From assembly GCA_038087875.1 (NCBI GenBank), contig CM075991.1, positions 8,930,001 to 8,994,000 on the forward strand: 64,000 bases of DNA, written 5' to 3'. The position numbers and the translations under genes are program-made. This DNA is from Malacoraja senta (taxonomy: Eukaryota). This document shows positions 501 through 46,644 of the stretch, in pieces (position 1 is the stretch's first letter; every line of letters begins with the position of its first letter). The notes beneath the pieces are model-generated. The model was not told the DNA's origin, did not search any database, and saw nothing but the letters and a program-made list of their open reading frames with translations.

Positions 501-1380
501 ATAGATACATAGAAACATAGAAAATAGGTGCAGGAGTAGGCCATTCGGCCGTTTGAGCCTGCACCGTCATTCAATATGATCATGGCTGATCATCCAACTC
601 AGTATCCCGTACCTGCCTTCTCTCCATACCCCCTGATCCCCTTAGCCACAAGGGCCACATCTAACTCCCTCTTAAATATAGCCAATGAACTGGCCCCAAC
701 TACCCTCTGTGGCAGAGAGTTCCAGAGATTCACCACTCTCTGTGTGAAAAAGTTTTTCCTCATCTCGGCCTTAAAGGATTTCCCCCTTATCCTTAAGCTG
801 TGACCCCTTGTCCTGGACTTCCCCAACATCGGGAACAATCTTCCTGCATCTAGCCTGTCCAATCCCATAAGAATTTTGTACGTTTCTATAAGATCCCCTC
901 TCAATCTCCTAAATTCTAGCGAGTATAAGCCGAGTCTATCCAGTCTTTCTTCATATGAAAGTCCTGACATCCCAGGAATCAGTCTGGTGCAATTTCTCTG
1001 CACTCCCTCTATGGCTATAATGTCCTTCCTCAGATTTGGAGACCAAAACTGTACGCAATACTCCAGGTGTGGTCTCACCAAGACCCTGTACAACTGCAGT
1101 AGAACCTCCCTGCTCCTATACTCAAATCCTCTTGCTATGAAGGCCAACATACCATTCGCTTTCTTCACTGCCTGCTGCACCTGCATGCCTACTTTCAATG
1201 ACTGGTGTACCATGACACCCAGGTCTCGCTGCATCTCCCCATTTCCTAATCGGCCACCATTTAGATAATAGTCTGCCTTCCCGTTTTTGCCACCAAAGTG
1301 GATAACCTCACATTTATCCACATTATACTGCATCTGCCAAACATTTGCCCACTCACCCAGCCTATCCAAGTCATCTTGGC
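501..1380 (-). mobile_element. CR1-clade LINE (HER1-like), 5'-truncated: RT C-terminus, 3' UTR and TATGTTTC/TATGTATC-type tail
   Basis: ORF 599..1399 encodes QDDLDRLGEWANVWQMQYNVDKCEVIHFG...LVRPHLEYCVQFWSP...RRLRGDLIETYKIL...FFTQRVVNLWNSLP, typical of the CR1 ORF2 C-terminus. Near-identical copies at 6061, 12370 and 33517. Confidence 0.95.
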
Positions 1381-1382
1381 AT

Positions 1383-1841
1383 TGATAAAAAAAATACATC
1401 TCTTGATGCTCCTGAACACATCATCGGTGATGTAACCTGGGATTCATTGGGTGTTTCGGGTCTTTCAACATCAGACACCCTCACCCAGGCGACCCAGCCG
1501 TGGTTGATCAGACCACGACTTGTGTTCAGGTGGCATTCGCTCCTCCCCATGGACCTCCTCTCCTGATCCAGAGCCATCTCGAGGCTTTCTCCGCAGCCTC
1601 TGTGGTGTTCTTGATGGCTCTTGTCCTCGCCACTCCGTTGACGCCCAGTGCGCTCAAGGCTTTGTAGAGCGATTGCCCTGCAAAACCTCTGCAGCCAACC
1701 TCGATGGCCAAACACCTTGCCTTCCAACCCTGCTTACGGCAGTTTATGACCAGTTCTTCATACTTGGTCATCTTCCTCTCGTGGGCCTCCTCCAGACGGT
1801 CCTCCCACGGCACTGTCAGTACCAACAAGACGATGTTTTGT
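1383..1841 (-). mobile_element. Hero-like (restriction-like-endonuclease clade) non-LTR retrotransposon 3' end
   Basis: ORF 1526..1828 LTVPWEDRLEEAHERKMTKYEEL...GWKARCLAIEVGCRGF...AAEKASRWLW matches the RLE C-terminus of Hero-type elements. A 3' UTR follows, down to about 1383. Confidence 0.8.
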
Positions 1842-6490: not shown

Positions 6491-6609
6491 AGAACATAAC
6501 GCATTGAACAGTACTGCACAGGAACAGGCCCTTTGGCCCACAGTGTCCATGCCAAGGTAAATTAAAATCCTCCACCTGTATGTGAATCATATTACCTCCA
6601 TTGTTACCT

Positions 6610-7377
6610 CCAGTGCTGGGGTCATTTTCGCCACCTCCAACGTGACCCCACCACTCGCCATATCTTCCCATCTCCCCCCCTGTCTGCTTTCCACAAAGAC
6701 CGCTCCCTCCGTAACTCCCTGGTTAATTCTTCCCTACCCACCCGCACCACCCCCTCCCCGGGCACTTTCCCTTGCAAACGCAAGAGATGCTACACGTGTC
6801 GCTTTACCTCCCCCCTCGACTCCATTCAAGGACCCAAGCAGTCGTTCCAGGTGCGACAGAGATTCACCTGCACCTCCTCCAACCTCATCTGTTGCATCCG
6901 CTGCTCTAGATGTCAGCTGATCTACATCGGTAAGACCAAGGGTAGGCTTGGCGATCGCTTCGCCGAACACCTCCGCTCGGTCTGCAATAACCAACCTGAT
7001 CTCCCGGTGGCTCAGCACTTCAACTCCCCCTCCCATTCCCAATCCGACCTTTCTGTCCTGGGCCTCCTCCATGGCCAGAGTGAGGACCACCGGAAACTGG
7101 AGGAGCAGCACCTCATATTCTGCTTGGGCAGTCTGCATCCCAGTGGCCTGAACATTGACCTCTCCAATTTCCGGTAGCCCTTGCTGTCTCCTCCCCATCT
7201 CAGCTCTCCCTCAGCCCTTGGGCTCCTCCTCTTCCTTTCTTCTTCCCCCCCCCCCCCCCCCCCCCCCCGCACCCTGTATCAGTCTGAAGAAGGGTTTTGG
7301 CCCGAAACGTTGCCTATTTCCTTCGCTCCATAGATGCTGCCGCACCCGCTGAGTTTCTCCAGCATTTTTGTCTACCT
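6610..7377 (+). mobile_element. Penelope-like element 3' part: GIY-YIG endonuclease plus terminal repeat carrying a hammerhead motif
   Basis: ORF 6851..7177 FTCTSSNLICCIRCSRCQLIYIGKTKGRLGDRFAEHLRSV...VAQHFN...RKLEEQHLIFCLGSLHPSGLN has the GIY-YIG pattern. CTGAAGAAGGGTTTTGGCCCGAAACGTT follows downstream. Confidence 0.92.
7284..7311 (+). ncRNA. Minimal hammerhead ribozyme motif (Penelope-type)
   Basis: CTGAAGA-A-[GGGTT TT GGCCC]-GAAAC-GTT: intact core with palindromic AACGTT stem III. Stem I pairing is weak. Confidence 0.7.
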
Positions 7378-7593
7378 CCATTCCTACATCTTCATGTGCC
7401 TTTCTAAAAGCTTCTTAAATGCCAGGACTCCCATCTATATTCCTGCTCTCTCCCCATATCCCTTTGCCTCCAGAAATGTATCTATCTTCCTAAATAGGAC
7501 ATGGCCTCCGTTGTAGACAAAAATGCTGGAGAAACTCAGCGGGTGAGGCAGCATCTATGGAGCGAAGGAATAGGACATGGCCTCTGTGGTAGT

Positions 7594-7895
7594 CTTCATC
7601 TTGTGTTTGAGGCAGCAGAAGTTATGTAACGCCCTCCAGGCGCTGCAGCCAGTGGGGCCTTCCCCGTTCAACTGCAGCAGGGCGATGCCATCCGGTTCCA
7701 CATCCGTAGATGCCCGCCCTAAAAGGGCGCATGCTCCGGGTTGGTGCCGAGCCGCGGCGACTGAGGTTGCGTTCGGGCTGCAAGCTGCGGCGACTGAGGT
7801 TGCATTATCTCTGCTGCTGTCTCTGTTTGTTGTCGTTCACCTGACTGAAGTCAGTTGACAGGACTCACCACGGGGAGGTCGACAGCATGAGCCCC
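7594..7895 (-). mobile_element. Short non-autonomous retroelement starting with an HDV-like ribozyme fold, 12-bp TSD
   Basis: TSD CTCTGTGGTAGT at 7582-7593 and 7896-7907. The minus strand ends ...CACAAGATGAAG and starts GGGGCTC-AT-GCTGTCG-ACC-TCCCCGT-GGT-GAGTCCT. Confidence 0.8.
7829..7895 (-). ncRNA. HDV-like ribozyme (catalytic C position reads T in this copy)
   Basis: P1 GGGGCTC/GAGTCCT, P2 GCTGTCG/CGACAAC, P3 ACC/GGT, L3 TCCCCGT, P4 CTGAC-TTCA-GTCAG, J4/2 TGAA (CGAA expected). Confidence 0.75.
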
Positions 7896-8151
7896 CTCTG
7901 TGGTAGTGAATGTCCTCTGGAGAATAAATCTCTCCTCATCTCAGCGTTGGACGTTTCGCTCCATTTCCTGAGACTGTGGACACTGGTTATAGACTCTCCA
8001 GCTGAGGGAATCATCCAGTCTGCCTGGCCCCAGTCAAAGGGCTACACTCCTTTAATATCTGGACAACTATCAATCTCTGCTTTGAGTAAACACGATAACT
8101 GAAACTTCTACCAAATCATTCTCATAGAGTGTGGGTAGCTAGATAAAATGT

Positions 8152-8350
8152 TCAAGAAGGAACTGCAGATGCTGGAAAATCGAAGGTAGACAAAAATGCT
8201 GGAGAAACTCAGCGGGTGCGGCAGCATCTATGGAACGAAGGAAATAGGCAACGTTTCGGGCCAAAACCCTTCTTCAGACTGAAGCAGGGTGGGAGGGGTG
8301 GGGGGCGGGATGAAGAAAGGAAGACGAGGAGCCGGAGGGCTGAGGGAGAG
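8152..8350 (-). mobile_element. Penelope terminal-repeat fragment with intact hammerhead core (8250-8277)
   Basis: Reverse complement of the terminal repeat at about 7205-7377, extended to CTGCAGTTCCTTCTT. Confidence 0.85.
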
Positions 8351-9199
8351 GCACTGATTTCTGGCGATACCCGGTCTAGTCGCAGTTCACCAACCTGAGA
8401 ACAAACCATTTACTGTATTCCCATTCTTTGCCTTCTGTCAAATAATCAACTCTCATTCCTGGAGGTGGATGCAATTGCAACTTTTAGGGGAGATTTGGGC
8501 AATTAGACGGGAGGCAAATGTGAATGGCCCAACATGCCAACTCGGTCGGCACTGGGCAGGGTGGGCCGAAGGGCCTGATTCCGTGCCGAATAGTTCTATG
8601 AATCCATGACTATGAAATAGTTATTGGATTGGAGATGGCTGTGAGAAATCCGAGGGAATTTTGGCATAGGAGGCTTTAAAAACAGCATTTGAATGTAGAT
8701 GTAAAATGTATCTGGAATTAGATGGGCCACAGACCAATACAGCTTTCGGTGAAAGCTAAAAACATATTTAAGTAATTGCACTTTCTGAATAAAAATGACA
8801 CATTGCCTTGTAGAACAAATTTGTATTCTTTAGTAACACGTCCTTATATTCTGTGTGTCACTCCCTTTTATTTCTCCTTCCTTCTCATTGATAACAGAGA
8901 GATAATTATAAACTCAGGGCATGGAGGAGTTATGCAAGGTCTAATTCCCGAGCTGACAGTTACATATTGGCTCATTAAATCAACCGAGTGGCTAAGTGCT
9001 TTTACTTTTGGATATTACACATTTCACTGGAAATTGGGAGATGGAACATGAACAAACTGGTTTCTTGTTTGAGGTCCGGCTGTGTAAAACAAAACGTGCG
9101 TTCTGTAGATGTTGGAGGCATTGGAGCACGTCAAACGCAAGAGAAGATATTCTCCGATGGTCGCACAATAGTGACCACCACACATAGATTTGCCTCTGT

Positions 9200-38007: not shown

Positions 38008-38952
38008 CAAGTCAAGTCAAGTGAGTTTATTGTCATGTGTCCCTGGTAGGACAATGAAATTCTTGCTTTGCTTGAGCACAACAGAACATAGTAGGCATTT
38101 ACTACAAGGCATTCTATAAATATATACACAATGGTCAATATACTGATAACGTGCAAATAACAGTATTGGCTAGTAAAGTTCAGTGTTATGTCCGAGCCAG
38201 GTTTAATAGCCTGATGGCTGTGGGGAAGTAGCTATTCCTGAACCCGGTCGTTGCAGTCTTCAGGCTCCTGTACCTTCTACCTGAAGGTAGTAGGGAGATG
38301 AGTATGTGGCCAGGATGGTGTGGGTCCTTGATGATGCTGCCAGCCTTTTTGAGGCAGCGACTGTGGTAGATCCCCTCGATGGAAGGGAGGTCAGAGCCGA
38401 TGATGGACTGGGCAGTGTTTACTACTTTTTGTAGTCTTTTCCTCTCCAGGGCACTCAAGTTGCCGAACCAAGCCACGATGCAACCGGTCAGCATGCTCTC
38501 TACTGTGCACCTGTAGAAGTTAGAGAGAGTCCTCCTTGACAAACCGACTCTCCGTAATCTTCTCAGGAAGTAGAGGCGCTGATGTGCTTTCTTAATAATG
38601 GCATCATTGTTCTCGGACCAGGAAAGATCTTCAGAGATGTGCACGCCCAGGAATTTGAAGCTCTTGACCCTTTCAACCATCGACCCGTTGATATAAACGG
38701 GACTGTGGGTCCCCATCCTACTCCTTCCAAAGTCCACAATCAGTTCCTTGGTTTTGCTGGTGTTGAGGGCCAGGTTGTTGTGCTGGCACCATATGGACAG
38801 TTGCTCGATCTCTCTTCTATACTCTGACTCATCCCCATCAGTGATACTTCCCACAACAGTGGTGTCATCAGCGAACTTGATGATGGAGTTCGCACTATGT
38901 CCGGCTACGCAGTCCTGAGTATAGAGTGAGTACAGCAGGGGGCTGAGCACGC
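38008..38952 (-). mobile_element. Rex/Babar-clade LINE, 5'-truncated, open RT C-terminus, (TTGAC)n tail
   Basis: ORF 38186..39004 CVLSPLLYSLYT...IIKFADDTTVVG...LNTSKTKELIVDF...KKAHQRLYFLRRL...LLPSGRRYRS. Inserted in a CR1 3' fragment. Confidence 0.93.
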
Positions 38953-39325
38953 AGTCTGAGTCTGAGGCTGTGACTTCCTTGCCCCCAATAACCTTTGACA
39001 CCATTGTTAATCAAGAATGTGTCAACATCCACTTGAAAAAATACACAATGGCTTGGCCTCTACAGCAATGAATGCCACAGATTCACTCTAAAGATGCGTG
39101 CTTTTTTCTGAGGCTGTGACCTCTTAGCCTAGACTCTCCCACTAGCGGAAACATCCTCTCCACATCCACTCTAGCCTGGCATTTCACTATTTGGTGAGTT
39201 TCAATGAGTGTCCCCCCCCCCCCTTCCTTCTAAACTCCCGTGAGTACAGGCTAAGAGCTGTCAATGCTCATCATACATTAACCCAAACATTCCCGGGAAC
39301 ATTCTCGTAAACCTCTACTGGACTC

Positions 39326-45095: not shown

Positions 45096-45845
45096 CATAT
45101 AACCATATAACCATATAACAATTACAGCACGGAAACAGGCCATCTCAACCCTTCTAGTCCGTGCCGAACACGTATTCTCCCCTAGTCCCATATACCTGCG
45201 CTCAGACCATAACCCTCCATTCCTTTCCCGTCCATATAACTATCCAATTTATTTTTAAATGATAAAAACGAACCTGCCTCCACCACCTTCACTGGAAGCT
45301 CATTCCACACAGCCACCACTCTCTGAGTAAAGAAGTTCCCCCTCATGTTACCCCTAAACTTTTGTCCCTTAATTCTCAAGTCATGTCCCCTTGTTTGAAT
45401 CTTCCCTACTCTCAGTGGGAAAAGCTTATCCACGTCAACTCTGTCTATCCCTCTCATCATTTTAAAGACCTCTATCAAGTCCCCCCTTAACCTTCTGCGC
45501 TCCAAAGAATAAAGCCCTAACTTGTTCAACCTTTCTCTGTAACTTAGTTGCTGAAACCCAGGCAACATTCTAGTAAATCTCCTCTGTACTCTCTCTATTT
45601 TGTTGACATCCTTCCTATAATTAGGCGACCAAAATTGTACACCATACTCCAGAATTGGCCTCACCAATGCCTTATACAATTTTAACATTACATCCCAACT
45701 TCTATACTCAATGCTCTGATTTATAAAAGCCAGCACACCAAAAGCTTTCTTTACCACCCTATCTACATGAGATTCCACTTTCAGGGAACTGTGCACAGTT
45801 ATTCCAAGATCCCTCTGTTCACCTGCATTCTTCAATTCCCTACCT
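45096..45845 (-). mobile_element. CR1 LINE, distinct subfamily with (TGGTTATA)n tail, open RT C-terminus
   Basis: ORF 45182..45889 QRDLGITVHSSLK...LYKALVRPILEYGVQFWSPNY...NFFTQRVVAVWNELP. Inserted into another CR1 fragment. Confidence 0.93.
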
Positions 45846-46644
45846 AATCTGTGGAATTCCTTGCCACAGACGGCTGTGGAGGTCGGCATTGGGTATTTTA
45901 AGGGGAAGATTGACAGATTTTCTTGAGAATAAAAGATAGATCAGCCATGACTGAATGGTGGAACAGACTAAATGGGCCGAATGGCCTAATTCTGTACCTA
46001 TGACTTATGAGCTTATAAAATTATGAAGTGTTCAACACTCAGGCTAGCCTCAGTTTTTAAGGTTAATGGAAAATAAAGGGCTTGAAGTGTTTACAAGTTG
46101 ATGTTTTCACCTGAGGGTCCACCTTTATCATAAACCACCAAACGTTGCTACAGAAAACGGCTTCTTCCCTCCACGAGCTTCGATCTACTGTGCATGCCAG
46201 AGGCACTGCAAGAACAGAGCGGATAAACAAAGCTCTGAACTCAAAGACAGCAGTACAAAGAAACATGGGAGAATTACATAAAAATCTGGAGTAACTCAGT
46301 GGGTCCGGCAGCATCTCTGGAGAAAAGGAATAGGTGACGATTTGAGTTGGGACCCTTGTTCAGACCCAAAAGGTCACCTATTCCTTTACACCAGAGATGC
46401 TGCCTGTCCCGCTGAGTTTTTGTGTCTATCTTCGGTTTAAACCAGCATCTGCAGTTCCTTCCTACAGTATTACATGCAGGCCCGGGCAACCATGAAAGGT
46501 AGGATTTCAAAGTAATCTTGCACAATTTGACCATGTTGTTAGCGTGTATATGTTAATGGCTATTTTCCGCTTTGGTACAGTGAAAACCGTTGTTTTGCAT
46601 GCTATCCAATCGGATATACTTAAATGCAATCAAGTCAAACGCAA

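Follow-up and report, generated by a model that had tools for sequence, protein, structure and literature searches.

Short retroelements whose 5' end carries a self-cleaving ribozyme and which depend on a larger partner have already been published (PMC3414825, PMC3383444, PMC4035085, PMC5786205). In trypanosomes, NARTc (263 nt, derived from L1Tc) and RIME (derived from ingi) are dispersed, non-autonomous partners that combine the 5' head of a LINE with its last ~30 nt, bear an HDV-like ribozyme cleaving just before +1, and are flanked by 11-12-bp duplications (PMC3383444, PMC4035085). The R2 SIDEs and R2/R1 hybrid SIDEs of Drosophila unite a 5' ribozyme with a LINE 3' end through internal deletion, and self-cleavage has been shown for SIDEs (PMC3414825); both SIDEs and L1Tc are covered by a review (PMC6765202). 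The bipartite RTE derivatives Bov-A, RTESINE1/2, MAR4_MD and WALLSI3 are short vertebrate elements made of the 5' and 3' ends of a LINE and have no small-RNA head (PMC5786205). Vingi, first reported in hedgehogs (PMC5753468), is a sister clade of Ingi whose compact elements have one ORF and lack RNase H (PMC13708176), the ORF measuring 993 aa (PMC3708506); many non-autonomous internal deletions are described for derivatives of the hedgehog element Vingi-1_EE and for Vingi-1_Acar (PMC5786205, PMC13708176). Six clades with a 5' ribozyme (R1, R2, R4, RTE, Ingi, LOA) are given in PMC5786205, Vingi not being among them, and the passages on Vingi in a 2026 review do not mention a ribozyme. Kojima has posed as an open question whether ribozyme heads explain the restriction of ORF-less bipartite derivatives to RTE, Ingi, Vingi and R2 (PMC5786205).

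The window analysed here is a 64,000-nucleotide stretch of the Malacoraja senta genome (contig CM075991.1, positions 8,930,001 to 8,994,000). It contains a 302-bp element (Table 1) that is probably a non-autonomous retrotransposon, produced when an internal deletion in a 3-kb LINE with a single ORF, most likely a Vingi, brought the LINE's first 244 bases next to its last 60, and headed by a predicted self-cleaving HDV-type ribozyme. In view of the published R2 SIDEs, NARTc, RIME and Vingi-1_EE derivatives, ribozyme-headed non-autonomous retroelements are thus a known kind. The element differs from NARTc and RIME in having a parent with a 3-kb ORF and no RNase H, an AAG tail rather than poly(A), an animal host and a ribozyme that is predicted only. 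R2 is specific for a site in 28S rDNA, truly promoter-less and equipped with a restriction-like endonuclease, whereas the element's family is dispersed and of APE type, and its self-cleavage is a prediction where that of SIDEs is demonstrated. The Bov-A-type derivatives have RTE parents and consist of UTR parts, whereas the window element keeps about 150 bases of ORF start. With the Vingi-1_EE derivatives and Vingi-1_Acar it most likely shares the clade, along with the single ORF, the lack of RNase H and the many internal deletions, in a different host. No report of a ribozyme on Vingi, or of this family in cartilaginous fish, was found in the literature searched, which was mostly that outside subscription journals; as far as these searches reach, the new aspects are a predicted Vingi ribozyme and the occurrence of a series of natural deletions in a genome of vertebrate type. 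Vingi thereby joins the LINE clades for which a 5' ribozyme is predicted, in line with the question raised by Kojima.

Table 1. Features of the 302-bp element and its flanks in window coordinates
Feature	Position	Strand	Basis
Whole element, 302 bp, bipartite internally deleted LINE derivative	7594..7895	-	Sequence, copy alignment, parent comparison
12-bp target-site duplication, 5' side of element, adjoining G1	7896..7907	.	Sequence
Target-site duplication, 3' side of element	7582..7593	.	Sequence
Predicted HDV-type ribozyme fold (element 1-67)	7829..7895	-	Rfam match, pair check; helices assigned by inspection
Catalytic cytosine position (element 57), T in window copy	7839..7839	-	Copy comparison
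Start of parent ORF, remnant (element 91-244), to first APE endonuclease strand; frameshifted here	7652..7805	-	Parent comparison
In-frame unit of 33 bp, present as a complete copy plus a partial one	7749..7805	-	Copy alignment
Last 10 codons and stop of parent ORF (element 242-274)	7622..7654	-	Parent comparison
Parent 3' UTR and (AAG)n tail, 28 bp	7594..7621	-	Copy alignment, sister-family comparison

Boundaries, copies and the parent LINE

An earlier sequence-only reading of the window had quoted a head sequence beginning at G1, the first base of the element, with a 12-bp duplication adjoining it. The head lies at 7895-7829 of the minus strand as written there, and the duplication is present on both sides; because G1 equals the next flank base, a 13th duplication base can be read. 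A DNA search of the same genome (best 40 scored of 1196 candidates) returned 42 matches to the element. The 24 copies that were aligned end in (AAG)n and diverge from their majority by 5.9% on average; the number of 33-bp units differs between copies of the family. Boundaries were assessed in two samples drawn with the head, whose search pattern has 466 genome matches at ≤1 mismatch. The first comprised 127 head matches, reduced to 59 by collapsing duplicates of one insertion and to 56 by dropping 3 more, and the second comprised 60 loci from the first 100 exact head-pattern matches listed, of which 52 remained once 8 5'-truncated loci were left out. In the first sample columns -12 to -1 agree at 29-48%, G1 is found in 44/56 copies and the next columns agree at 80-96%, while in the second G1 is found in 47/52. 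The copies' 5' ends therefore stack at G1, as had been anticipated, and conservation ahead of it is at background in both samples. Duplications of 8-20 bp flank 27 of the 50 tail-bearing copies in the first sample (0/250 mismatched flank pairs), 25 of the 27 ending at G1 or one base inside, and 34/52 copies in the second (0/200 mismatched flank pairs); they are not a product of chance. The base preceding G1 is T in 26/56 copies of the first sample and 31/52 of the second, and the duplications mostly start with A, which together suggest a T immediately 5' of each of the two nicks. Additionally, a contig from a differently labelled organism covers the 5' junction and flank (window 7723-7996) with 22 differences in 274 bases; this insertion may be common to more than one species, although its flank is also a repeat.

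Element bases 2-244 match the 5' end, and bases 243-302 the 3' end, of full-length LINE copies in the same genome. This shows that the whole element consists of two LINE ends, joined at a 2-3-base microhomology at about 7652-7653. Identities to the 5' and 3' parts are 85% and 90% for L151, 85% and 91% for L109, and 73% (gapped) and 93% for L150; some long copies are dispersed, among them L150 (3026 bp) and L151 (3619 bp), the latter flanked by a 12-bp duplication of its own. Several genome matches of the element stop at base 244, beyond which their DNA continues as a frame coding for endonuclease and reverse transcriptase (RT), and of 20 loci chosen by RT similarity, 18 terminate with the last 55-60 bases of the element. 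A search for the parent with the 3' 110 bases gave short copies only among the 30 loci examined; it was the matches stopping at base 244 that led to the parent. The earlier description of an element with no tRNA, 5S or 7SL head and no recognisable ORF holds for the three heads (no tRNA in 7000-8500, no 5S or 7SL match in 6500-9000) but not for the ORF, since remnants of both parent ORF ends are present. The long copies with an intact start (L107, L150, L151, L153 and L157, five independent copies) all begin with A, giving an A1-U36 pair, unlike most short copies, which begin with G and a G-U wobble; the short families may stem from another subfamily of the parent. The presence of a 2A-like motif where the ORF begins was considered and rejected: the stretch leads into the endonuclease, and PMC3708506 reports Vingi to be without 2A.

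The parent LINE is 3.0-3.1 kb long and has a single ORF with Exo_endo_phos and RVT_1 domains (Pfam). None of the copies read had an intact ORF; the genomic copies are broken yet collinear with the 1013-aa protein P0002, to whose last residues they align. The closest intact relatives of the parent protein, of about 1010 aa, are 62-66% identical and lie on 3.3-3.6-kb contigs. RNase H (PF00075) is found neither in the parent pieces nor in P0002, and is present in 20/28 hand-picked, more distant relatives. In an RT tree of 38 rows, none of them a named Vingi or RTE row and with 2 window RT fragments left out as too short, the parent falls inside a clade (100/99) of 16 RNase H-less rows that stands among RNase H-bearing relatives. 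Four of six short parent RT motifs match references in the RTclass1 file, all of them metazoan and Ingi-labelled and most of them hedgehog Ingi-1_AAl, while no motif matches an RTE entry in the part of that file covered, and the RTE entries at the first 12 of 583 places listed for them differ from the parent by eye (PMC3708506, supplement 2). The names Vingi-1_Pp and Vingi-1_BF appear in PMC3391268, from which we infer that the RTclass1 entries Ingi-1_Pp, Ingi-1_BF and Ingi-1_AAl correspond to later Vingi names. Protein-cluster look-ups for 20 proteins yielded no clade name, and a search of solved structures returned L1, R2 and group II intron RTs only. On motif look-ups, domain content and the correspondence of names, rather than a reference tree, the parent very probably belongs to the Vingi clade. 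Thus an autonomous LINE with the same 5' and 3' ends does exist, as had been expected, but it lacks RNase H and belongs to the Vingi/Ingi group instead of being the RTE-type partner that had been proposed. Other retroelements have also left disrupted frames for RT or endonuclease in the window (599-1420, 6566-7177, 38186-39010 and 45182-45940), presumably CR1-like, Penelope GIY-YIG-like and L2/Rex-like.

The predicted HDV-type head

The fold assigned to the head comprises P1 (element 1-7/30-36, 7 bp, opening with the G1-U36 wobble), P2 (10-16/61-67), P3 (17-19/27-29), P4 (42-46/51-55) and L3 (20-26, with U20 and G25). In P1.1, C22-G37 is the only canonical pair and is conserved, the second position being C/U in the family. 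Every pair of P1, P2, P3 and P4 is canonical or G-U in the family majority, which bears out the HDV-type layout with G1 as its first base that had been proposed from the window copy. That copy itself has one P2 mismatch (base 11) and an extra P1 wobble (base 33), neither of which appeared in the earlier account. A search against Rfam, whose HDV models had been suggested as a check, covered 6500-9000 and gave HDV-F-prausnitzii as the best match, exactly over the head, but at 26.5 bits (E 0.033) against a gathering score of 44; likewise, 9 of 12 sister loci match this model at the head with 24.4-35.4 bits, all below 44. Energy folding of the head yields nested helices only, without a pseudoknot, and in trypanosomes the well-folded heads of TcoSIDER1-beta and TbSIDER1-beta are inactive (PMC4035085). 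The head of the element is best described as a predicted self-cleaving HDV-type ribozyme. In the family majority it resembles the CPEB3 and HDV-F-prausnitzii ribozymes in its 7-bp P1 with a G-U first pair, 3-bp P3, 7-nt L3 with U20 and G25, and C57 in J4/2, and the CPEB3 numbering fits the element base for base at U20, C22, G25, U36 and C57 (PMC4836649). It differs from them in the sequences of its helices, and the heads of its family, predicted only, stay below Rfam gathering scores. All integrity checks of the head are passed by 6/44 short copies, 12 long or other-junction copies having been left out of these checks and of the base 57 test in the 303-bp family described below. Besides the P2 mismatch the window copy fails at C57, and its ribozyme is likely to be inactive.

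In the window copy J4/2 reads TGAA, which the sequence-only reading had explained by CpG decay of a catalytic cytosine, with CGAA expected in the consensus. C57 is indeed found in 38/56 and 41/52 copies of the two samples and is the majority base in contigs of 4/4 public runs examined; it sits in a CpG, and decay there is the simplest reading of the copy comparison. In the 303-bp family, C57T is the most frequent CpG change (12/42 versus a CpG background of 144/1475, p 0.0005) and is accompanied by the non-CpG change C47T (6/10, Fisher p 0.04). The ranking behind this sample was in part by similarity to the window copy, in which both changes are present. In the second sample, picked regardless of base 57, C57T stands at 11/52 versus 82/629 for the remaining C-to-T changes at CpGs, an excess short of significance (p 0.07); a different CpG is equally high (12/52) and no marker is common to the T copies. 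The 303-bp family had suggested that active ribozymes are selected against, or that a subfamily is cleavage-dead, and the second sample does not support this. The copies with C57T and C47T could represent a small cleavage-dead sublineage of the 303-bp family whose source still makes precise ends; plain CpG decay is the simpler reading of C57T.

In related metagenome LINEs, a descriptor search of the DNA upstream of the ORF was positive at 4/25 loci, belonging to 2 families, compared with 1/750 shuffles and 0/25 reverse strands; 5 loci with too little upstream DNA were left out, and the 21/25 loci with no descriptor match may be truncated or decayed. In these LINEs the same fold sits 115-223 bases before the ORF match. 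One head, L239:2188-2271, reaches 55.6 bits on the Rfam model CPEB3_ribozyme, above its gathering score of 35, and agrees letter for letter with the consensus of the model over long stretches. An Rfam scan of 22 metagenome loci gave ribozyme matches in 2 of them (L239, and L232 at 25.2 bits) and missed L225. Across three families the letters of P1, P2 and P3 change yet pairing is kept, and the letters of the catalytic core are retained across distant families with differing helices. The related LINEs, which are of invertebrate type, thus carry compensatory changes supporting the HDV-type fold, in three families only and as judged by eye. CPEB3-like heads are also seen in L236 and L237 and at L225:3386 and L232:3317. 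A LINE head that passes Rfam's model of the mammalian CPEB3 ribozyme offers a lead on the origin of that ribozyme. It is conceivable, if on present evidence rather improbable, that Vingi LINEs carry a CPEB3-type head as standard, that the head alone frees promoter-less 120-200-base fragments from host transcripts and lets them spread in a vertebrate-type genome, and that the CPEB3 ribozyme of mammals arose by domestication of a Vingi 5' end.

Deletion families and mobilisation

The junction of the window element recurs at 34 places (≤1 mismatch) with different flanks and their own duplications, and its deletion family is estimated by scaling at about 70 copies. A 203-bp sister family (for example L250, L256 and L260), which retains only 28 bases of the 3' end, has 327 junction matches and an estimated 440 or so copies, making it ~6 times as abundant. 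It accounts for 57 of the 60 heads of the second sample, in which there was no full-length copy, although the head pattern misses a variant that long copies often have. Breakpoints at other places are seen in singletons, whose lengths run from 123 bp (L305) through 165 bp (L249) to 746 bp. The head is kept in all of the independent deletions (L154, L155, L156, L157, L027, L249, L305 and the 203-bp family). Since the last 28 bp are the sole 3' part left in the 203-bp family, they are the likely recognition site of the reverse transcriptase. This natural deletion series narrows what a Vingi template needs in cis: the head is retained throughout, and in the family with the most copies the 3' part has shrunk to 28 bases. 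Vingi-1 is used as a tool for inserting genes with RNA alone, the donor RNAs being flanked by UTRs (PMC13708176), and a self-cleaving 5' UTR would matter there.

Direct observation extends to the ends common with the LINE, the ORF remnants, the duplications, the 5' ends at G1 and the several independent deletion families. Beyond these, the proposed cycle is as follows. RNA containing the element would be trimmed at G1 by the ribozyme; the endonuclease and reverse transcriptase of the LINE, acting in trans, would recognise the last 28 bases or fewer together with the AAG tail; and a copy would be inserted by target-primed reverse transcription, leaving a 10-14-bp duplication. The common tail and the length of the duplications point to the parent protein as the probable agent of this trans-mobilisation. 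The short length of the element would let most copies arrive full-length, and inserted copies would then decay neutrally, the window copy having presumably lost its catalytic C at the CpG in this way. R2 SIDEs rely on read-through and self-cleave (PMC3414825), and the first 77 nt of L1Tc and NARTc are both internal promoter and ribozyme (PMC3383444). By analogy with the latter pair, our best guess is that the RNA would come from host read-through and from a promoter inside the head together.

The double role of those 77 nt in trypanosomes also lends itself to a different explanation, that an internal promoter starting at +1 gives the copies their precise 5' ends and that the ribozyme fold is minor or vestigial, or serves translation or protein binding. 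The copies are dispersed, with no fixed host promoter ahead of them, and C57T with C47T occurs in 6 copies of the 303-bp family, L001 and L014 with duplications adjoining G1, both of which would agree with this. Cap copying, as in L1, would be expected to add a G at -1. Such a G is rare, however (3/52 copies), the second sample gives C57T neither a clear excess nor a companion marker, and the core letters are kept where the helices around them differ. We therefore think it unlikely that an internal promoter dispenses with the ribozyme, and prefer trimming at G1.

The two further alternatives are far less probable. The sequence-only reading had proposed an independently assembled, promoter-less, ribozyme-headed SINE moved by an RTE LINE. 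The ribozyme head, the AAG tail and the lack of a tRNA, 5S or 7SL head all agree with it, and RTE too yields bipartite derivatives, some RTE families being predicted ribozyme carriers (PMC5786205). It was right in seeing a non-autonomous retroelement; a deleted LINE derivative has multiplied at many sites. However, every base of the element, ORF remnants included, maps to one LINE, which refutes a separately built SINE; its head is not derived from a small RNA (tRNA, 5S, 7SL or snRNA), as in a SINE, but is the LINE's own 5' end, and the RT motifs agree with Ingi/Vingi references and not with the RTE entries seen. As a whole this proposal is now very unlikely. Less likely still is that each short copy is a one-off deletion, or a joining of 5' and 3' ends during insertion of a long LINE, and not a member of a moving family. 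The unique breakpoints of L154, L155, L156, L157, L249 and L305 would suit such events, and these singletons may have arisen so; for the two main families it is refuted because the junctions are shared, each recurring with different flanks and its own duplications at the many places counted above. The preferred reading thus remains that of an internally deleted LINE derivative that has moved as a family.

A few copies show further rearrangement. An inverted head or tail segment is present in L037, L105 and L108, as expected from twin priming or later rearrangement. In L065 (1488-1707) a copy is interrupted at the junction by an element of ~220 bp with terminal inverted repeats and a TAA duplication, presumably a Harbinger/PIF-like MITE. 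Finally, one full-length LINE insertion belongs to a unit of several kb that is found, amplified, on dozens of small unplaced contigs (L061-L063, L066-L068 and others). Its neighbours there are presumably an LTR fragment of integrase-like character and a frame resembling L1 ORF1.
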